From the NCBI GenBank assembly GCA_017455385.1, contig JAFTBD010000025.1, positions 1 through 36,903 on the forward strand: DNA of 36,903 nucleotides, written 5' to 3'. Every line of letters begins with the position of its first letter. Position 1 is the first letter of the stretch. Position numbers and translations under genes: made by a program. The notes beneath the pieces were generated by a model that did no database searches, was not told the origin of the DNA, and worked only from the letters and a program-made list of their open reading frames with translations. This stretch comes from Clostridia bacterium (lineage in GTDB: Bacteria > Bacillota > Clostridia > Christensenellales > CAG-1252). Below are positions 1,036 through 36,903 of the stretch, piece after piece.

Positions 1036-1066
1036 ACAAAATGATATGTGGATAGCCCGACGTTAA

Positions 1067-1094
1067 TGCGGAATTCGGAATGCGGAATGCGGAA
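1067..1094 (+). repeat. Tandem heptamer array TKCGGAA x4, followed by a mini-hairpin CGCGC-AAA-GCGCG at 1104..1116
   Basis: Read directly as tgcggaa ttcggaa tgcggaa tgcggaa. The same heptamer recurs at 36665..36678. Its reverse complement recurs at 17831..17901 and 26026..26096. Confidence 0.9.
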
Positions 1095-1208
1095 TTGAGG
1101 TAACGCGCAAAGCGCGATCTTAATAATTCTCCAAAGAATTACTTAAAAAAGAGAGCGGAGATGGGGTGGGAGCACGTTGCGCTTGCGAACCTGTGAGCAA
1201 GCGTTTAG

Positions 1209-1615: not shown

Positions 1616-1670
1616 AAAAATGGCGCGTGATATCTGCGCGTTAATACCCAACCGCTCGGGAGAATACGCT

Positions 1671-4160
1671 ATGAAAAAAATGTTATTCATCGTCCTCGCC
1701 ATCGCTTTGATCGTCTGTTTCGTTGCCTGCGAAGTAACGCCCGCGACGTCTACGGACACGGACACAACGACGGACGTCGTCGAGACGCCGTCGGAGCCTG
1801 CCACGGAAACGCCGACCGAGCCCACGACCGAGACGCCGTCGGAGCCGCCCGAGACGCCCACGACGACCACGCGCGAGCTGACCGTCCGCTATTATGACGG
1901 CGAGACGCTCCTCGACACCAAAGTCTACACGAGGAAGATCATTCTCATCGACTACACGAACGAGGATCGCCTTTTCTTCGGCTGGTACACAGACCCGGAA
2001 TGCCAAACGGAATACGAAGCGTCCAAGACGTCGCAATATTTCGAGCTGAAAAATATCAACCTATACGCCAAAACGGAGAACATCATGGAAACATTCGAGA
2101 TAATCATCACGGGAAAAGTGAGCGAGAACGAGACCGTTCTGAACCCCCTCTTCACCTGGGCAGCGGGGGGCGAGACCTCTTTCGTCGCCGCGCTCTATCT
2201 GAATAACGCCCTCGTGGACAGCAAGAACCTGACCTCTCCCTCTTTCCGCAGCGGGAAGAAACTGAAAGTCAACAGCGAATACGTCCTGTCGGTTACGGGC
2301 GGCAGCGGCGCGAAGAGCCTCATCCGTTTCAAGACGGTAAACGGCACCAACACGACCGCCATCACCCCCATCACGATGTCCGACCCCTTTATGGACAATA
2401 TGGTGCTGCAACGCGGCGTCCCGAACGTTATTTCCGGCATCGGACCCGCGAACGCCTTGATCTCGGTGACGATGACGACCGATACGTTGGCGGAGCATTA
2501 CACCGCCGTCTCGAACGACAAAGGTCGCTTCGAGGTCACCCTCCCCGTCCGAGCCGCATCCTTCACCCCCTCGACCATCCGTATCGAGACGGGACTCGTA
2601 TCTGCGGGGACCCCCGTGGAGAAGACGATCTCGAACGTGCTTTTCGGCGACGTCTATCTCTTCGCGGGACAGTCCAATATGCAATGGCTGACCAAAGATT
2701 CCGACTATGAACAGAGCGACATCGACGCCTTCTCTGACTCCTACGTGCGTTTCTTCTGCCAAAACGTAGTGACTTCCGCCACGAAAAAGCAGAACGTCAC
2801 GAACGGTCGCTGGTTTATCCCCGGCGGCACCAACTGCGACTGGTTCAGCGCCATCGCGACGATGACGGGCTCTTTCCTCGGCACCGCGTTGAAAGAAGAG
2901 ACCCCCGTCGGCATCCTCACGGCATACCAAGGCGACACCAATATCGCGAACTGGATGGGCGAGGAATATTACAGCGGCACCTGCTCCACCAAGAACCTGC
3001 ACTACAATGCGATGGTATATCCCCTGCACGATGCGAATCTCAGCGGCGTGGTGTGGTATCAAGGCTGTAATAACTCCGCGGCGGCATATGATTACAAGAC
3101 CTTGCTCGGCGACCTATTCCGCAATTACCGCGACCTATTCCGCAAGGAGGATCTGCCCTTCTTCGTCATCGGTCTCGCCTGTTTCGACGGCGACAAGGAT
3201 GCGCAGGGCAAACTCGATCCGATGCACAACCCCTACGACTTCTCCTTCGTTCGCGAGAGCCAAGCCGCGGCGTGTGCGGCGGATGAGAACGCCTATTTCA
3301 TCTCCACCTGCGACGACGGCGATCCCACCTATATCCACCCGCGCGCGAAACGCTATATCTGCGAGCGCGTGGCGAAGAGCATCGGCGTGGCGATCTACGG
3401 AAACGCGGGCTATGCGGAGGGTCCCTCCTACAAGTCGCACGAAGTGGCGGGGAATACCGTCATCATCGAGCTGAATAATGCAGAAGGTCTCTATGCCGAG
3501 GGCGAGATCACGGGGCTCTATCTCGCGGGCGCGGACGGCAAATACCACGCGGCGACCGCCGCTATCCTGGACGGCAAGATCGTCGCCTCGTCCGACAAGG
3601 TGACGTCGCCCGTCTACGTGAAGTACGGCTTCCTCAGAAGCCCCTTCGTGAATATCTACAATAAAGACGGCTTCGTCATCACCCCCTTCCGCACGGACGT
3701 CTATGACACCAATATCGACCTATTCGATTACGACACCGTGGCGAATTACACCTTCCATCCGGACGGCGCAGCGATGGAAGTAGCGCTGACCGAGGGCGGC
3801 AACCTCTCCGTCTCGATGGCGAATGACGGCAAGGGCTACGGCTCCGTCCGACTGGAGAAATACAGCGCCATCGCCTATCATCCCGAGCGGCTGGCGGTCA
3901 CCTTCGTCGGCAAGAATACGGGCGCCAAGATCTACGTCCGTTTCGTCGAAGGAAGCGGCGAGATATGGGGCTGTGAGATCCTCGACAATTTCACCGGGGA
4001 GCAGACCGTCTTCGTGGACGTCGACGACTTCACCGTGCTCTATGACGAGAAGGATCACGTCTTCGATACGCAGAAGATCAAGAGCGTGGAATTCCTCATC
4101 AAGTACGACGGCGCGCTTACGCTCGAAGTGTGCAACGTTCGCTTCGTTGACGGCGAATAA
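1671..4160 (+). CDS. Lipoprotein with a Listeria-Bacteroides (InlB B-type) repeat and a sialate O-acetylesterase-like (SASA/SGNH) domain
   Basis: In-frame ATG at 1671 with a GGGAGA RBS at 1657..1662. Signal peptide and lipobox: MKKMLFIVLAIALIVCFVAC. A Thr/Pro/Glu-rich linker follows. FFGWYTDPECQTEY matches the repeat motif. Esterase motifs: LFAGQSNMQW, GVVWYQGCNN and TYIHPRAKR. The track start at 1572 is an upstream extension without an RBS. Confidence 0.75.
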   Translation: MKKMLFIVLAIALIVCFVACEVTPATSTDTDTTTDVVETPSEPATETPTEPTTETPSEPPETPTTTTRELTVRYYDGETLLDTKVYTRKIILIDYTNEDRLFFGWYTDPECQTEYEASKTSQYFELKNINLYAKTENIMETFEIIITGKVSENETVLNPLFTWAAGGETSFVAALYLNNALVDSKNLTSPSFRSGKKLKVNSEYVLSVTGGSGAKSLIRFKTVNGTNTTAITPITMSDPFMDNMVLQRGVPNVISGIGPANALISVTMTTDTLAEHYTAVSNDKGRFEVTLPVRAASFTPSTIRIETGLVSAGTPVEKTISNVLFGDVYLFAGQSNMQWLTKDSDYEQSDIDAFSDSYVRFFCQNVVTSATKKQNVTNGRWFIPGGTNCDWFSAIATMTGSFLGTALKEETPVGILTAYQGDTNIANWMGEEYYSGTCSTKNLHYNAMVYPLHDANLSGVVWYQGCNNSAAAYDYKTLLGDLFRNYRDLFRKEDLPFFVIGLACFDGDKDAQGKLDPMHNPYDFSFVRESQAAACAADENAYFISTCDDGDPTYIHPRAKRYICERVAKSIGVAIYGNAGYAEGPSYKSHEVAGNTVIIELNNAEGLYAEGEITGLYLAGADGKYHAATAAILDGKIVASSDKVTSPVYVKYGFLRSPFVNIYNKDGFVITPFRTDVYDTNIDLFDYDTVANYTFHPDGAAMEVALTEGGNLSVSMANDGKGYGSVRLEKYSAIAYHPERLAVTFVGKNTGAKIYVRFVEGSGEIWGCEILDNFTGEQTVFVDVDDFTVLYDEKDHVFDTQKIKSVEFLIKYDGALTLEVCNVRFVDGE

Positions 4161-5740: not shown

Positions 5741-5814
5741 AATTCAAGCGTAGCGCCTTTGCATCCTTTTATAAAGGAGGCTTGATTGCGGACGAGCAGA
5801 GCGAGGACGGAATG
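5741..5814 (+). repeat. 74-nt conserved block, with an inverted second copy at 22760..22833
   Basis: aattcaagcgtagcgcctttgcatccttttataaaggaggcttgattgcggacgagcagagcgaggacggaatg. By hand alignment, 70 of 74 positions match the reverse complement of 22760..22833. Confidence 0.9.
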
Positions 5815-5900
5815 GTGGATTTTGAAATCCCCCTCTCCGCTCCGCCTATGGCTTCGCGCAGACGATCCCCCTTTGCAAAGGGTGCAAATTGGCGTCCGCA

Positions 5901-5924
5901 ACTCCACTCTCCACACTCCACTCT
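5901..5924 (-). repeat. Tandem heptamer array (GTGGAGA family, here read as ctccact/ctccaca)
   Basis: actccactctccacactccactct. The same heptamer family occurs at 36731..36760 on the opposite strand. Confidence 0.85.
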
Positions 5925-5932
5925 GAAAAATC

Positions 5933-6008
5933 GGATGAGATACTTCGGCACGTTTCGCGTCCGCTCAACGGCTCAGTATGACATTTATACATTTCGCGCA
6001 GCGCCACC
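5933..6008 (+). repeat. Head module of the mosaic element (GGATGAGAT.CTTCG ... CAGKATGAC-AT-rich-TTCGCGNAGCGCCACC)
   Basis: ggatgagatacttcgg...ctcagtatgacatttatacatttcgcgcagcgccacc. Homologous heads lie at 17761..17827, 25966..26025 and 36761..36868 (reverse strand). Confidence 0.75.
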
Positions 6009-6022
6009 GCAGTTTGCACGAA

Positions 6023-6101
6023 GTGCAACATCGTTGCGCCGCGGCGCACATCGTTTTTGCGGAAGCAAAACATCGTTTGCCGATAGGCAACATCGTTTGC
6101 G
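6023..6101 (+). repeat. Four tandem copies (20-22 nt period) of a small hairpin GCAAAC-ATC-GTTTGC
   Basis: acatcgtt cores lie at 6028, 6048, 6070 and 6090. Each is embedded in gcaa(a)acatcgtt(t)gc, an imperfect palindrome. Confidence 0.8.
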
Positions 6102-6121
6102 CCGCGCCATCGCGACGCAAT

Positions 6122-16281: not shown

Positions 16282-17661
16282 ATGAAAAAAGAAGAAAGAG
16301 TCATTCCCTACAAGATCTATCTCGAAGAGTCCGAGATGCCGAAGGCATGGTATAACGTCCGTGCCGATATGAAAACAAAGCCCGCGCCCCTTCTGAATCC
16401 CGGCACGGGTAAGCCCGTCACCAAGGCGGACCTCGCTCCCGTTTTCTGCGACGAACTCATCGATCAGGAGCTGGACAATGACACCCGCTTCATCGAGATC
16501 CCGGAGGAGATCCGCGACTTCTACAAGATGTATCGCCCCTCCCCTGTCGTGAGAGCCTACTATCTGGAGAAGAAGCTCGGCACCCCCGCGAAGATCTACT
16601 ACAAGTTCGAGGGCAATAACACGAGCGGCAGCCACAAGCTGAATAGCGCCATCGCCCAAGCCTACTACGCCAAGAAACAGGGTCTCAAAGGCGTCACGAC
16701 CGAGACGGGCGCAGGACAGTGGGGCACCGCGCTCAGCATGGCTTGTGCATACTTCGGGCTGGACTGCAAAGTCTTCATGGTGAAGTGCTCCTACGAGCAG
16801 AAGCCCTTCCGCCGCGAAGTGATGCGCACCTATGGTGCGAGCGTCACCCCCTCCCCCTCTACGGAGACCGAGATCGGCAAGAAGATACTTGAGGAATTCC
16901 CCGGCACGACGGGCAGCCTCGGATGCGCCATCTCCGAAGCGGTGGAGAAGGCAGTCACCAACGAAGGCTATCGTTACGTGCTCGGCTCTGTGCTGAACCA
17001 GGTGCTCCTGCACCAATCCGTCATCGGTCTCGAGGCGAAAGCCGCTCTCGATAAATACGGCGTCACCCCCGACATCATCATCGGTTGCGCAGGTGGCGGC
17101 AGTAACCTAGGCGGTCTCGTCGCTCCCTTCATGGGGGAGAAACTCCGCGGCGAGAAAGATTATCGCATCATCGCCGTCGAGCCTGCGAGCTGTCCGAGCT
17201 TTACCCGCGGCAAATACGCTTACGACTTCTGCGACACCGGCAAGGTCTGCCCCCTCGCCAAGATGTACACCCTCGGCAGTGGGTTCATTCCCTCCGCGAA
17301 CCATGCGGGCGGTCTCCGCTATCACGGCATGAGTTCCATCCTCTCCGAGCTCTACGACGAGGGATATATGGAGGCGACCTCGGTCGAACAGACCAAGGTC
17401 TTCGAGGCGGCTGAGCTCTTCGCTCGCAGCGAAGGCATCCTGCCCGCCCCCGAGAGTTCCCACGCCATCCGCGTCGCCATCGACGAGGCATTGAAGTGCA
17501 AAGAGACGGGCGAAGAGAAGACCATCCTCTTCGGTCTCACCGGCACGGGCTATTTCGACATGGTGGCATACGAGAAATTCCACAACGGCGAGATGAGCGA
17601 TTACATCCCGACCGACGCGGAGCTCCAAGCCTCTTTGGACAAATTGCCGAAGCTGCAATAA
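16282..17661 (+). CDS. trpB: TrpB2-type tryptophan synthase beta-like PLP enzyme (stand-alone)
   Basis: The 459-aa long-form N-terminus, TSGSHKLNSA (PLP Lys), GVTTETGAGQWG and GCAGGGSN identify it. An AAAGGAGG RBS is present. No trpA is adjacent. Confidence 0.8.
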   Translation: MKKEERVIPYKIYLEESEMPKAWYNVRADMKTKPAPLLNPGTGKPVTKADLAPVFCDELIDQELDNDTRFIEIPEEIRDFYKMYRPSPVVRAYYLEKKLGTPAKIYYKFEGNNTSGSHKLNSAIAQAYYAKKQGLKGVTTETGAGQWGTALSMACAYFGLDCKVFMVKCSYEQKPFRREVMRTYGASVTPSPSTETEIGKKILEEFPGTTGSLGCAISEAVEKAVTNEGYRYVLGSVLNQVLLHQSVIGLEAKAALDKYGVTPDIIIGCAGGGSNLGGLVAPFMGEKLRGEKDYRIIAVEPASCPSFTRGKYAYDFCDTGKVCPLAKMYTLGSGFIPSANHAGGLRYHGMSSILSELYDEGYMEATSVEQTKVFEAAELFARSEGILPAPESSHAIRVAIDEALKCKETGEEKTILFGLTGTGYFDMVAYEKFHNGEMSDYIPTDAELQASLDKLPKLQ

Positions 17662-17679
17662 GTCCCTTGTGATCCCTAG

Positions 17680-17717
17680 AAAAAGGCGTTCTTCCCGAGC
17701 GGGGAACGCCTTTTTTT
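17680..17717 (+). terminator. Rho-independent terminator
   Basis: aaaaa-ggcgttc-ttcccgagcgg-ggaacgcc-ttttttt. Confidence 0.85.
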
Positions 17718-17760
17718 CTATTAAATCTTGCCGAAACATCTCCACCGTGTTAAAAAACGG

Positions 17761-17901
17761 TTGAGCTCCTTCGACTGCGCTACGCTTCGCTCAGGATGAC
17801 ATTTCTTTATTATTCGCGTAGCGCACCTTTATTCCGCATTCCGAATTCCGCATTAGAGCATAGCGTTTCAGGTCCGCATTCCGCATTCCGAATTCCGCAT
17901 T
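17761..17901 (+). repeat. Mosaic intergenic element (type copy): head module, ATTCCGM x3, 17-nt linker, TCCGMAT x4
   Basis: Head: ttgagctccttcgactgcgctacgcttcgctcaggatgacatttctttattattcgcgtagcgcacc. Arrays lie at 17831..17854 and 17872..17901, with the linker agagcatagcgtttcag between them. The 47-nt 3' part matches 26050..26096 at 46 of 47 positions by hand alignment. Confidence 0.9.
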
Positions 17902-17942
17902 GGATCAAGTTCCGCATCCCGCTCCGCGCCCTGCGCGCGCCC

Positions 17943-17971
17943 TTGACTTTCGCCCGGAATAGATATATAAT
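17943..17971 (+). promoter_or_regulatory. Sigma-70 promoter TTGACT-17-TATAAT for mscS
   Basis: ttgact at 17943..17948 and tataat at 17966..17971. Confidence 0.65.
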
Positions 17972-17999
17972 TATCCATATATTTCCTTCGGAGGTCAAT

Positions 18000-18998
18000 A
18001 TGAACTGGGACGAGATATGGCTGACCATTACGGATTTTTTCCAAGATAACGTGTGGAACATCATCGGTTTCTTCGCGGCGCTCGTCATCGGGCTCATCGT
18101 GATCAAGATCCTCACCGTGGTGCTTAAAAAGGCATTCACTCGCTTGAAGATGGACTCTGTGGCGCAGGGATTCCTGCTCACCATCATCCGTTTCGCGCTG
18201 TGGCTGGTCTTCATCATCATCCTACTCTCTGTCGCGGGCGTGCAGGTCACGGGCGTCATCACCGCCGTGAGTGCGGCGATCCTCGCCATCGGCATGGCTC
18301 TCCAGAGCAATATCTCCAACATCGCGAACGGCATCGTCATCGTGACGCATAAAATGTTCAAAAAAGGCGACCGCATCGAAGTCGCTGGGATCTCGGGGCG
18401 TATCTCGGAGATCAATCTCCTCTTCACCACCATCAATACCGCCGACAATAAGAAGGTCACCGTCCCGAATTCCACCATCGTGAACAGCGCCGTCATCAAC
18501 GCCGACGCCATCGGCAAACGCCGCGTGGATTTCAATTTCCCCGTCGCTTACGAGTCGGACGTGAAGGTCGTCTGCGACATCGTCTTGGACGTGATGAAGA
18601 GCGACGGCAGGGTGTATCTCGATCCCGCCCCCTTCTGCAAGCTGAAAGAATTCGGGGACAGCAGCATCAATTTCTTCGCGAATTGTTGGTGCGACGCGGA
18701 GGACTATTGGGACGTCTACTATTACGTGATGGAACACGTTTTCAATGAGTTCAAGAGGCGCGGCGTCTCCATTCCCTATCAGCAGGTGGAAGTCAGAGAC
18801 CGCACCGACGTCGTCACGATGCCCTACGACGAAGCCCCCATCCCCGAGCGGGTGGAGAAGGATCGTCCCGAGCCCGAGACGCGCATCGAGGAGATCAAGC
18901 GCCACTACAACGAGACGAAGGAGCGCTTCGCACACAAGAAGTCGCACGTCGAGCCCGAGCTCCCCAAAGAGCCTTCCGTCCCGAGTGACGACGAATGA
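18000..18998 (+). CDS. mscS: Small-conductance mechanosensitive channel (MscS family)
   Basis: Start at ATG 18000, after GGAGG at 17990..17994. Three TM helices are followed by KMFKKGDRIEVAGISGRISEINLLFTTINTADNKKVTVPNSTIVNSAVIN, the MscS beta-domain signature. The track start at 17796 lies inside the repeat element. Confidence 0.85.
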   Translation: MNWDEIWLTITDFFQDNVWNIIGFFAALVIGLIVIKILTVVLKKAFTRLKMDSVAQGFLLTIIRFALWLVFIIILLSVAGVQVTGVITAVSAAILAIGMALQSNISNIANGIVIVTHKMFKKGDRIEVAGISGRISEINLLFTTINTADNKKVTVPNSTIVNSAVINADAIGKRRVDFNFPVAYESDVKVVCDIVLDVMKSDGRVYLDPAPFCKLKEFGDSSINFFANCWCDAEDYWDVYYYVMEHVFNEFKRRGVSIPYQQVEVRDRTDVVTMPYDEAPIPERVEKDRPEPETRIEEIKRHYNETKERFAHKKSHVEPELPKEPSVPSDDE

Positions 18999-22665: not shown

Positions 22666-22742
22666 TGCATAATATTAACAAAATTCTTTATATTTTTATT
22701 TTAATGCAATGCTTTATGCAATATATGCATTGTTTATGCAAT
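22666..22742 (-). promoter_or_regulatory. AT-rich cluster of TGCAT/ATGCA half-sites; candidate ArgR/AhrC operator region
   Basis: tgcataatatt at 22666..22676 and atgcaatgctttatgcaatatatgcattgtttatgcaat at 22704..22742. The latter includes TGCAT-5-ATGCA and ATGCA-5-TGCAT palindromes. ARG boxes are TGAAT-4-ATTCA, so the spacing and sequence fit only loosely. Confidence 0.35.
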
Positions 22743-22759: not shown

Positions 22760-22833
22760 CATTCCGTCCTCGCTCTGCTCGTCCGCGATCAAGCCTCCTT
22801 TATAAAAGGATGCAATGGTGCTGCGCTTGAATT
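22760..22833 (-). repeat. Inverted copy of the 74-nt block at 5741..5814
   Basis: The reverse complement reads aattcaagcgcagcaccattgcatccttttataaaggaggcttgatcgcggacgagcagagcgaggacggaatg. Confidence 0.9.
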
Positions 22834-22861
22834 AGGAATTAGGAATTATGAATTAGGAATT
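22830..22861 (+). repeat. Tandem heptamer array AATTAGG x4 (one AATTATG variant), then palindrome GCGCA-A-TGCGC
   Basis: aattagg aattagg aattatg aattagg aatt, followed by gcggtacgcgcaatgcgcgatcc. The same heptamer occurs at 36696..36713. Confidence 0.9.
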
Positions 22862-22899
22862 GCGGTACGCGCAATGCGCGATCCTTATAAACCAAAAAT

Positions 22900-22920
22900 G
22901 AATACCCGAATGAGAGCGGA
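22900..22920 (+). repeat. Short dispersed word gaatacccgaatgRgagcgga
   Basis: It recurs at 36883..36903 with one mismatch. The core gagagcggag also occurs at 1151..1160. Confidence 0.8.
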
Positions 22921-24774: not shown

Positions 24775-24850
24775 GGGGATATGGCTCAGTTGGTAGAGCG
24801 ATACGTTCGCATCGTATAGGTCAGGGGTTCGAATCCCCTTATCTCCACCA
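24775..24850 (+). tRNA. tRNA-Ala (anticodon CGC), CCA encoded
   Basis: I folded the 76-nt cloverleaf by hand. Acceptor ggggata/tatctcc includes the G3:U70 Ala identity pair. Anticodon stem is atacg/cgtat with loop ttCGCat. T arm is agggg-ttcgaat-cccct. Discriminator A plus CCA is encoded. Confidence 0.95.
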
Positions 24851-24851
24851 A

Positions 24852-24877
24852 AATGTCGGATTTATCCGACATTTTTT
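24852..24877 (+). terminator. Rho-independent terminator after tRNA-Ala
   Basis: aatgtcgga-ttta-tccgacatt-tttt. Confidence 0.8.
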
Positions 24878-25004: not shown

Positions 25005-25027
25005 GAATCCCCTTGTCTCCACCAAAA
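25005..25027 (+). repeat. Direct duplicate of the tRNA-Ala 3' end (att-like scar)
   Basis: gaatccccttGtctccaccaaaa versus gaatccccttAtctccaccaaa at 24831..24853, 22 of 23 identical and 174 nt apart. The upstream sequence is not tRNA-like. Confidence 0.8.
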
Positions 25028-25065
25028 ACAACCGATTCGCACTCGCGAGTCGGTTGTTTTGTTTC
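25028..25065 (+). terminator. Hairpin plus T-rich tract after the duplicated tRNA end (probably the original tRNA terminator)
   Basis: acaaccga-(14 nt)-tcggttgt followed by tttgtttctttt. Confidence 0.6.
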
Positions 25066-25858: not shown

Positions 25859-25965
25859 ACCAGATAAAAACCCAATAAAACAGCGGTCGAGAAACTTCGA
25901 GACGCGGCGTAGCCGACGGCAAATAGCGAGCTTGATGAGAAACATCTCCACCTTATTGAAAAATT

Positions 25966-26096
25966 GGATGAGATCCTTCAACTGCGTTCAGGATGACATC
26001 TATATTTTCGCGCAGCGTCTCCATTATTCCGAATTCCGCATTCCGAATTAGAGCATAGCGTTTCAGTTCCGCATTCCGCATTCCGAATTCCGCATT
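25966..26096 (+). repeat. Mosaic intergenic element (second near-identical copy): head, ATTCCGM x3, linker, TCCGMAT x4
   Basis: ggatgagatccttcaactgcgttcaggatgacatctatattttcgcgcagcgtctcc, then arrays at 26026..26049 and 26067..26096 around agagcatagcgtttcag. The last heptamer contains the stop codon of the S51 peptidase gene. Confidence 0.9.
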
Positions 26097-36576: not shown

Positions 36577-36662
36577 TACACTTTTCTGACAGTGTATAGC
36601 GGCGCATCTGCGTTGTTTCCGTCATCGCCTTGACGAAACACGCACAAGAAACGCTACGCTAT

Positions 36663-36868
36663 AATGCGGAATGCGGAACTGTGACGCTTCGCTTTAATTA
36701 GGAATTAGGAATTGAGGTAACGCTACGCGAGAGTGGAGTGTGGAGAGTGGAGAGTGGAGTTAAGGTGCGCTGACGCGAGAAAATATAATCGTCATCCTGT
36801 ACCGAAGCGAAGCGTAGGTCCGCGTAGAGCCGCAGGCGAATAGCGAGCAGCGTCGAAGGATCTCATCC
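36663..36868 (-). repeat. Mosaic intergenic element (reverse orientation) with three different heptamer arrays
   Basis: Arrays: TGCGGAA x2 at 36665..36678, AATTAGG x2.5 at 36696..36713, and GAGTGGA/GTGTGGA x4 at 36731..36760. They are separated by GC mini-hairpin linkers. The head, read on the reverse strand, is caggatgacgattatattttctcgcgtcagcgcacc (36764..36799) and ggatgagatccttcgac (36852..36868). Confidence 0.85.
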
Positions 36869-36903
36869 GTTTTTCTATATAGGAATACCCGAATGGGAGC
36901 GGA

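Follow-up and report, generated by a model that had tools for sequence, protein, structure and literature searches.

Two kinds of repeat in a clostridial contig

We analysed a stretch of 36,903 nucleotides from a Clostridia bacterium (Christensenellales, CAG-1252; GenBank assembly GCA_017455385.1, contig JAFTBD010000025.1), referred to below as the window. Its G+C content is 56% and its annotated genes include mscS, argG, argH and typA, together with a 2,099-aa open reading frame (ORF); yabP and yabQ adjoin the same sequence in a near-identical ENA contig, which marks the source as a spore former, uncultured and Clostridium-like. A preliminary description had reported at 17761-17901, and at further intergenic places, a dispersed element made of a conserved head and a body of seven-nucleotide tandem repeats and mini GC hairpins. 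The dispersed non-coding mosaic is genuine, and a bacterial interspersed mosaic element (BIME), as suggested there, is its nearest analogy. Our analysis indicates that the head is probably a gene-less orphan copy of a hairpin repeat that forms the inverted ends of a cassette encoding a small GIY-YIG nuclease.

A covariance model built from the head, R1, was used to search the window with filters off. It returned exactly four heads, at the places originally described, with E values of 2.2e-10 to 3e-6, and the next-best match had an E value of 0.1 (Table 1). Copy 1 consists, in order, of GGATGAG, the stem strand P1 (ATACT), TC, a variable hairpin, TC, P1' (AGTAT) and GAC, and its P1 shows a compensatory change relative to the other copies. 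Copy 2 is degenerate (GGTTGAGCTCC), with GGTTGAG and a P1 of CTCCT/AGGAT that contains one mispair, and copy 3 is the shortest of the four and the closest to the family consensus. Copy 4 carries an insertion of about 40-52 nt (CCGAAGGTCCGCGTAGAGCC..GCGAATAGCGAGC) inside its variable hairpin, at 36816-36849. The same insertion also stands alone at 1370-1403 and lies inside a head of the yak-rumen metagenome-assembled genome (MAG) JAGCXI01 (locus L037, about 1660-1730, minus strand), so the variable hairpin accepts nested insertions that are themselves repeated.

The head is a covarying hairpin found across bacterial phyla

The head is not confined to the window. The exact pattern GGATGAGATMCTTCRRC-N(2-32)-CAGKATGAC, scanned over one genome per species, gave 67 loci, which belong to about 45 genomes and to at least 11 phyla. 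The groups represented are Clostridia, Bacteroidota, Ignavibacteriota, Acidobacteriota, Actinomycetota and Nitrospirota, as well as Alpha-, Gamma- and Zetaproteobacteria, lineages of the candidate phyla radiation (CPR), TM6, Gastranaerophilales and Omnitrophota. Within the 524 kb of these loci R1 detected 222 head copies, typically in dense clusters with both orientations present, and in some clusters the orientations alternate with short linkers between them (e.g., L019, L013, L044 and L153). Head density reaches 9 per 8-kb locus, compared with 4 per 37 kb in the window. The head itself is an imperfect palindrome of about 30-50 nt. Most copies are intergenic, as 152 of 172 heads defined by regular expression lay outside long ORFs, and they are enriched between convergent genes (17 of 50 regions versus a 19% baseline). 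Where flanking genes were called on both sides, 58 of 89 heads were co-oriented with the upstream gene.

Across 129 distinct copies the stem was paired in 98.7% of the cells, versus 22-46% when the partners were slid, and five of the seven stem pairs change on both sides; one column pair reads CG in 99 copies, GC in 9, AU in 8, UA in 6 and UG in 4. Stem variants include ATCCT, ATTCT, ATTGC, ATCTC, ACCCT, ATTCC and ATGTC. The unpaired bases are essentially invariant: GAG before the stem, a TC/TC internal loop, and GAC(A) after the stem. Read on the opposite (GTCAT) strand, the TC/TC loop becomes a tandem GA/GA. On this GTCAT strand the inner hairpin has a C-GNA-G apex in 64 of 108 heads (59%); the written strand has one in 3 of 108, and shuffled sequences in 4-5 of 108. 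This asymmetry suggests that one head strand appears to be under selection.

When the window and 18 head-rich loci were searched with the 4,227 Rfam models there was no match to the head, and only tRNA, tmRNA and cobalamin riboswitch were found; at E<=10 nothing relevant turned up over 17660-18000. Nor is the head a described class of repetitive extragenic palindromic (REP) sequence with a GTAG/CGTC tag. The exact pattern, which represents one subfamily, was absent from 2.9 million viral contigs (IMG/VR), and a phage origin of the head was rejected on this ground. Other identities that we tried and discarded include a hammerhead or other small ribozyme, which has similar GAUGAG...GAC flanks but whose CUGAnGA and GAAA cores are absent from the head, again with no Rfam match, and a CsrA-binding small RNA (sRNA; CAGGAUG, GGA), whose GGA would sit in the covarying stem (AGUAU, GACAU, GGGAU, GCAAU). 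The registers of a kink-turn or a tRNA T-arm are incompatible with the covarying pairs, and the cores of integron attC, dif and oriT nic sites are either absent or unconserved once P1 covaries.

Beside full heads there are often tandem arrays, with a period of 11-30 nt, into which only the head's 3' half (..CTCAGGATGAC and a further 10-20 nt) has been amplified (loci L006, L016, L019, L025, L010 and L003).

Heads bracket a gene for a small GIY-YIG nuclease

The preliminary description had proposed looking for a linked recombinase gene, such as that of a REP-associated tyrosine transposase (RAYT). An all-against-all comparison of the 1,392 ORFs from the 67 head loci revealed no recurrent transposase among them. 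The sole protein family abutting heads in unrelated genomes was instead a GIY-YIG protein of roughly 95 aa, present in three genomes and consisting of a stand-alone GIY-YIG domain (Pfam PF01541, E about 1e-19). In all three a forward head lies within 25 nt of its stop codon, and in locus L048 an inverted head directly precedes its start codon.

The association was then examined from the side of the gene, by a metagenome scan that gave more than 582 relatives, from which 80 loci (189 kb) were taken. At E<0.1, R1 found 143 matches in these loci. The canonical adjacency of head and gene was seen by R1, which is a narrow model, in 32 loci, 18 of them with both ends. A model-free comparison, in which the upstream flank was aligned with the reverse-complemented downstream flank, scored above all 30 shuffles at 47 of 67 loci; of the same 67 loci, 49 have GTCAY.. 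upstream of the gene, 46 have ..RTGAC downstream of it and 41 have both motifs. Of 77 genes, 23 have a stop codon that adjoins the head or overlaps it, and ten of these use the TGA of TGAGAT/TGAGAC. The overlap is consistent with the GGATGAG that precedes orphan heads being a relic of the gene's 3' end, and in the window this GGATGAG corresponds in position to the last codons and TGA stop of the nuclease gene. The same head-bracketed layout occurs in an isolate, Natronincola ferrireducens, whose gene is at about 824165-824449 of FNFP01000001.1, and in an Oscillospiraceae MAG the gene lies between complete doublets, in each of which 10 nt separate an inverted head from the forward head that follows it.

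The full cassette reads GTCATnnnGAG..GAAGnnnTCTC, then the 5' untranslated region (UTR) and the ORF, then (TGA)GAnnnnnTC..TCnnnnnGAC. An 'empty' form has the same two heads 10-40 nt apart, similar to the REP doublets known as REPINs, and doublets, single heads and half-heads accumulate as clusters in intergenic DNA. The element had been described as having neither terminal inverted repeats nor an ORF. Both statements hold for the decayed orphan copies of the window, where the relic GAAACATCTCCACC is all that is left of an inverted end, but not for the family, which forms inverted doublets in other genomes and elsewhere carries the nuclease gene.

The catalytic residues Y7, Y18, G20, R28, H32, E65 and N84 are invariant in 33 GIY-YIG relatives, and by this measure the nuclease family looks active. 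It is large: clustering at 50% identity (E<=1e-10) gives 3,944 clusters, and at 90% identity there are at least 7,931. Among solved structures the nearest in sequence is that of BH0048, a UPF0213 protein of Bacillus halodurans (PDB 1ZG2, E 2.4e-5), and PHROGs labels the nearest phage relatives homing endonucleases. Many database proteins assigned to this family (among P0121-P0270) have 40-50 extra N-terminal residues, which probably represent translation through the upstream inverted head from mis-called starts.

Mobility and turnover of the cassette

One Firmicute species provided clues to how the cassette moves. An identical 95-aa GIY-YIG gene (P0105) was seen in ten places, six of which (L176, L178-L182) have it between dnaA and dnaN. 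In L183-L185 its downstream neighbour is dnaN and the upstream end is cut off, and in L177 it is inverted between dnaN and the next gene (S4_2), the dnaA-dnaN spacer of that locus holding empty doublets only. The dnaN-S4_2 site of the other strains contains one empty doublet. In the filled form the 5' UTR, the ORF and 9 nt stand in place of the 41-nt inter-head spacer. Doublet units are joined by a constant 19-nt spacer, and their number varies between strains. As the junctions between filled and empty forms lie in head or spacer homology and show no target duplication, the sequences indicate that the cassette moves by recombination or gene conversion, in a homing-like manner, and not by classical transposition. 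Firmicutes usually have their replication origin in the dnaA-dnaN spacer, which the cassette and doublet arrays occupy in L176-L185.

Heads also come and go within a species. A locus of Mediterranea massiliensis has one head in the type strain, whereas a MAG has three there; the inner hairpins of the extra heads are unlike that of the resident one, implying that they were copied in from elsewhere. Likewise, a 368-nt tandem block of heads in L084 is absent from L086.

A proposed route for the spread of heads

We regard it as very probable that the head belongs to a GIY-YIG-associated repeat family. That the nuclease also drives the spread of heads, by cutting the hairpin, seems to us an evenly balanced proposition. 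Under this proposal the nuclease would recognise a folded hairpin or cruciform which, read on the GTCAT strand, presents a stem of 5 bp, an internal loop of tandem G.A, a further, short stem and a triloop with the sequence GNA, and would cut at this fold. Repair by recombination with another copy would then spread heads, doublets and the gene, the net effect being homing into the cassette's own dispersed repeat without target-site duplications.

Several observations weigh against the cassette explanation or parts of it. The scan with the exact pattern is biased to one head subfamily. R1 found no match in 38 of the 80 gene loci, many of which carry other head subfamilies by eye (e.g., L093-L095, L105-L107, L128 and L142-L144), and no GIY-YIG ORF is present in the 37-kb window. 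G.T wobbles favour the written strand, opposite to the GTCAT strand (14 versus 6), in conflict with the GNA/GA asymmetry. Nearest-neighbour DNA folding of the window heads was no better than that of shuffles (z -0.9 to +1.4), so the claim of a head structure rests on covariation. The 95-aa catalytic domain has no obvious DNA-binding domain, and its cleavage of the hairpin is purely what we infer. Outside the window's genome, short arrays (period 5-12) are only weakly enriched beside heads, in 11 of 324 head-adjacent windows versus 4 of 513 head-free intergenic windows. Finally, the gene could merely prefer to insert into a pre-existing repeat rather than drive its spread, as some insertion sequence (IS) elements of the IS110 family target REPs. 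Targeting of REPs is known for some IS elements (PMC12288879).

The window heads as probable orphan ends

The four heads of the window are probably decayed right-hand ends of former cassettes or doublets and inert passengers, because there is no GIY-YIG ORF and no complete inverted partner of any head in the window and because heads are intergenic across loci. The word GAAACATCTCCACC at 17733 and 25939 is the sole remnant of such a partner, and the window heads stand singly, not in alternating-orientation clusters. The element that includes copy 2 (17733-17901) is preceded by the upstream gene's terminator (17684-17718) and followed by the promoter of mscS (17943-17971). No consensus promoter was predicted inside it, and neither promoter nor terminator was predicted at head copy 3.

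This placement bears on two of the roles that had been considered for the element. A contingency switch that changes promoter context and a structured non-coding RNA family are both argued against by the terminator-to-promoter position of 17733-17901 together with the lack of a consensus promoter. In its fuller form the latter idea takes the head as an sRNA, or as a 5' or 3' UTR element, through which the mRNAs of the nuclease and of neighbouring genes would be controlled or stabilised; the orphans would then be RNA genes in their own right or would stabilise 3' UTRs, as has been proposed for REPs. It would account for the strong covariation with invariant unpaired bases, for the excess of G.U over A.C on the written strand and for the co-orientation of heads with upstream genes, which in the window holds for all three heads whose upstream gene lies within it (5933, 17759 and 25966; the upstream neighbour of the fourth is beyond the window end). 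It fits poorly with the missing promoter and Rfam match, with copy 2 following an intrinsic terminator and preceding the next promoter, with the lack of a U-tract after the hairpin and with the two orientations found side by side in clusters. For downstream heads the GNA/tandem-GA signature is on the strand opposite to the co-oriented transcript, and presence/absence polymorphism and movement with the nuclease gene point to the DNA level. We therefore consider an RNA role unlikely and favour decayed cassette ends.

The heptamer arrays form a second repeat family

Arrays were mapped with Tandem Repeats Finder (TRF) and shared stretches with self-BLAST. The heptamer arrays reported in the preliminary description were recovered, TRF detecting period-7 arrays at ten places in the window, and so were the two loci that have arrays without a head (1063-1118 and 22826-22885; Table 1). 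Both array-only loci have the layout 'array + AATTG(A/C)GGTA(A)CGCGCAAWGCGCGATC', and each window array is bordered by a module of the GCGNAGC type. At copy 4 (minus strand) the order is CTCCACT (36759-36729), AATTCCT (36713-36696) and TTCCGCA (36678-36663), with a GCGNAGCG-type separator after each. The described order of head followed by array fails at locus 1, where a CTCCACT array lies upstream of the head. Units run head-to-tail without spacers, both as heptamers and as 20-nt hairpin units, and the arrays are indeed not CRISPR (short palindromic repeats in clusters, with regular interspacing). Arrays of 20-nt units made of GCAATTCATG plus a hairpin, analogous to those at 6009-6121, occur in JAGCXI01, a Clostridia MAG to which, among the genomes that matched the head pattern, the window's organism is most closely related.

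Table 1. Heads, relics and body parts located in the window
Feature	Position	Strand	Basis
Head copy 1	5933..5982	+	R1 match 5929-5985, E 1.5e-8
Head copy 2	17759..17800	+	R1 match 17755-17803, E 2.6e-8
Head copy 3	25966..25997	+	R1 match 25962-26000, E 2.2e-10
Head copy 4	36791..36868	-	R1 match 36872-36788, E 3e-6
Relic of an inverted left-hand head, inner end (GAAACATCTCCACC)	17733..17746	+	Common to 25939-25952; full doublet in L012 for comparison
Relic of an inverted left-hand head (GAAACATCTCCACC)	25939..25952	+	Alignment with the 17733 locus
CTCCACT array, about 3.3 copies, upstream of head 1	5900..5924	+	TRF; same heptamer family at 36729-36759
AT-rich linker and GCGCAGCGCC mini-hairpin module, GCGNAGC type	5983..6008	+	Conserved in all four copies
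Five-unit array, unit about 20-23 nt (short variable GC hairpin and constant ACATCGTT)	6009..6121	+	Sequence
AT-rich linker and TTCGCGTAGCGCACC module	17801..17827	+	Alignment
Two ATTCCGM arrays (17831-17854, 17873-17901) with AGAGCATAGCGTTTCAG between	17831..17901	+	TRF
Linker and TTCGCGCAGCGTCTCC module, then two ATTCCGM arrays (26026-26049, 26067-26096) with separator	25998..26096	+	TRF, alignment
Linker and TCGCGTCAGCGCACC module, then three arrays	36648..36790	-	TRF
Array-only locus, GATCGCGCTTTGCGCGTTACCTC and AATTCCGC/ATTCCGM array	1063..1118	-	TRF, self-BLAST
Array-only locus, GGATCGCGCATTGCGCGTACCGC and AATTCCT array	22826..22885	-	TRF, self-BLAST
Heptamer arrays	17831-17854, 17873-17901, 26026-26049, 26067-26096		TRF
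Heptamer arrays	36663-36678, 36696-36713, 36729-36759		TRF
Further heptamer arrays	1065-1095, 5902-5924, 22829-22861		TRF

The near-identical stretch shared by two copies was confirmed with a small correction, 17854-17901 and 26049-26096 being identical at 47 of 48 bases and not 46 of 47. The likeness extends further, with 89% identity by self-BLAST between 17791-17901 and 25988-26096 and additional shared words, and the whole composite at 17733-17901 aligns end to end with 25939-26096. The notion of a single composite element did not survive, however, since at least two repeat families can be separated. The body is a second family, separable from the head, because heads elsewhere mostly have no arrays (about 88% of the heads outside the window genome lack short arrays) and because identical arrays occur in viral contigs without heads: the exact 24-mer ATTCCGCATTCCGAATTCCGCATT was found in six viral contigs with a G+C content of 0.41-0.67, none of which has a head, and three copies of CTCCACT in 15. 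We conclude that the body joined the head in this lineage and was copied along with it as a composite of roughly 165 nt (17733-17901, 25939-26096).

The IMG/VR contigs L155-L175, mostly of 52-67% G+C, carry ATTCCGM and CTCCACT arrays identical to those of the window. Often these adjoin other heptamer families (TTTCCAC, CTCCGCT, AATTGCG), and some are inverted and could form long hairpins.

An origin of the heptamers as target-site-duplication footprints of repeated insertion was considered and is unlikely, because arrays are shared within one duplicated composite and filled/empty junctions show no duplications. The arrays might instead have a function of their own, as slippage-prone contingency tracts that alter promoter context or as periodic sites for a protein that binds RNA or DNA (e.g., tracts rich in C and poor in G on the transcribed strand, resembling Rho-loading sites), with the heads incidental. 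The viral contigs with identical ATTCCGCATTCCGAATTCCGCATT or CTCCACT arrays, often beside other heptamer families, would fit such a function, as would the heptamer arrays that flank heads in Mediterranea and in an Acidobacterium. The arrays are also C-rich and G-poor on the strand of the upstream gene at four of five testable places (5900, 17831, 26026 and 22829), a bias that is compatible with an RNA-level role and proves nothing; the exception, the array at 1065, is G-rich on that strand. Array lengths are the same in the available strain pair: the near-identical ENA contig (L001), from the one other strain, differs by a single nucleotide polymorphism in 5.4 kb, a G/T at 17873 inside an array. 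The arrays near mscS are upstream of its -35 box and not between promoter elements, and enrichment of arrays near heads elsewhere is weak. On balance we find an independent function of the arrays improbable, a little more so than an RNA role of the head.

A third contig of the same organism, from Logan, breaks within the 17873 array, which suggests that the repeat breaks assemblies.

Comparison with known systems

The family has its closest counterpart in REP, BIME and REPIN-RAYT systems, with which it shares extragenic palindromes that are short and imperfect and whose unpaired bases are conserved, inverted doublets, alternating clusters, a small nuclease-type gene between two inverted repeats, and many gene-less copies. 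Given this likeness, including that of size, the head could be a classical REP/BIME family mobilised by a RAYT (of the Y1 HUH class) or another transposase encoded elsewhere, the GIY-YIG gene being only a frequent lodger; that some IS elements target REPs, as mentioned above, would be in keeping with this. The head, however, has no GTAG or CGTC tag; its invariant flanks read GAG and GAC(A), or TGTC..CTC on the complementary strand, and the motif is absent from the REP surveys consulted, including the text of PMC3733652. The bracketed ORF encodes a GIY-YIG hydrolytic nuclease, without transposase chemistry and not a Y1 HUH enzyme, and inside doublets it holds the position that RAYT genes have in REP systems, while the 1,392 ORFs contained no recurrent transposase. 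Further differences are the alternative sites of the gene, near-identical sequence across at least 11 phyla, and recombination-type junctions that show homology and no target-site duplications. Mobilisation by a transposase is thus, in our judgement, very unlikely, the least plausible of the alternatives, and a cassette with its own nuclease agrees better with these features.

Free-standing GIY-YIG homing endonucleases (T4 Seg proteins, I-TevI-type enzymes) resemble the head-linked proteins in having a catalytic domain with all catalytic residues (in the relatives, not in the window), filled and empty sites in one species and no target duplication. In contrast to them, the head-linked protein is only about 95 aa long and has no obvious DNA-binding domain, its predicted target is a dispersed hairpin repeat carried at both cassette ends, and the cassette is chromosomal and intergenic, the scanned head subfamily having no exact match in IMG/VR. 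UPF0213/COG2827 proteins, such as BH0048, have the same size and domain as the head-linked protein. Miniature transposable elements with inverted repeats (MITEs) share with head doublets the short, non-autonomous, intergenic form with inverted ends, but here the filled/empty junctions show no target-site duplication, no parental IS with a transposase turned up among the head loci and each of the ends is a hairpin in its own right.

In DNA, hairpins of the GCGNAGC type, which have sheared G.A pairs, show unusual stability; d(GCGAAGC) and GCGNAGC mini-hairpins of this kind were reportedly described by Hirao and colleagues in the 1990s. The C-GNA-G apex and tandem GA/GA loop of the head recall them, and the mini GC hairpins of the window are of the GCGNAGC type, but they are isolated biophysical motifs and not dispersed repeats, and standard folding rates the heads as unremarkable. 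The short tandemly repeated repetitive (STRR) sequences of heterocystous cyanobacteria are heptanucleotide tandem repeats with several families per genome. The window's arrays resemble them in being short, intergenic and of several families, a resemblance and nothing more, since phylum and heptamers are different and the arrays here have GCGNAGC modules between them and are attached to a hairpin repeat.

More tentatively than for the driving role of the nuclease, we suggest that minimal GIY-YIG nucleases and hairpin doublets may constitute an unrecognised, pan-bacterial class of self-propagating elements. Such elements would home into their own repeat, recognised as a G.A-rich folded DNA structure and not as a sequence, and would leave thousands of orphan hairpins and spurious small ORFs from CPR to Proteobacteria. 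In the literature searched by sequence word and topic, whose coverage is incomplete so that an earlier description is possible, we found no description of the pairing of nuclease and repeat; sequence words matched primers or plasmid backbones only, and for UPF0213/COG2827 proteins no function or repeat association was found. If the proposal is true, it would provide a counterpart in function to REPIN-RAYT that uses another enzyme, and a second example of a nuclease and a repeat population together. Small stand-alone GIY-YIG proteins of the UPF0213/COG2827 type are very common, and the link would supply them with a testable function, that of a structure-specific nuclease acting on its own flanking hairpins. 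Short 'GTCAT...ATGAC' hairpins abound in many genomes and yield spurious hypothetical proteins; the link would explain why assemblies break, and why intergenic regions are long, in MAGs like the window's and would give a simple annotation rule, namely to mask these repeats. For this window the consequence is modest, its heads being probably decayed passengers.

Other repeats in the window

The word GAATACCCGAATGRGAGCGGAGA(W)GG occurs at 22900-22920 and 36883-36903 and partly at 1140-1165, beside array or head loci, and follows the array-only modules at 22900 and 1140. A 74-nt repeat with 94.6% identity is found at 5741-5814 and, inverted, at 22760-22833, both times after an array and AAGCGYAGC module; it holds the palindrome CCTTTTATAAAGG and a Shine-Dalgarno-like AAAGGAGG. 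Upstream of an 862-aa SASA/Flg_new ORF there are two direct copies of about 135 nt, 77% identical (1209-1345 and 1436-1571). Each contains GAGAC...GTCTC hairpins and has no Rfam match, and the pair could be a duplicated leader or another repeat family.

Directly upstream of argG, at 22704-22742, lies an AT-rich 20-nt direct repeat (two copies of ATGCAATGCTTTATGCAATAT), which from its sequence looks like a pair of arginine-repressor operator boxes. A tRNA-Ala(CGC) gene at 24775-24850 is followed by two short near-perfect palindromes, at 24850-24875 and 25025-25060, and in the same area bases 24831-24853 recur at 25005-25027.

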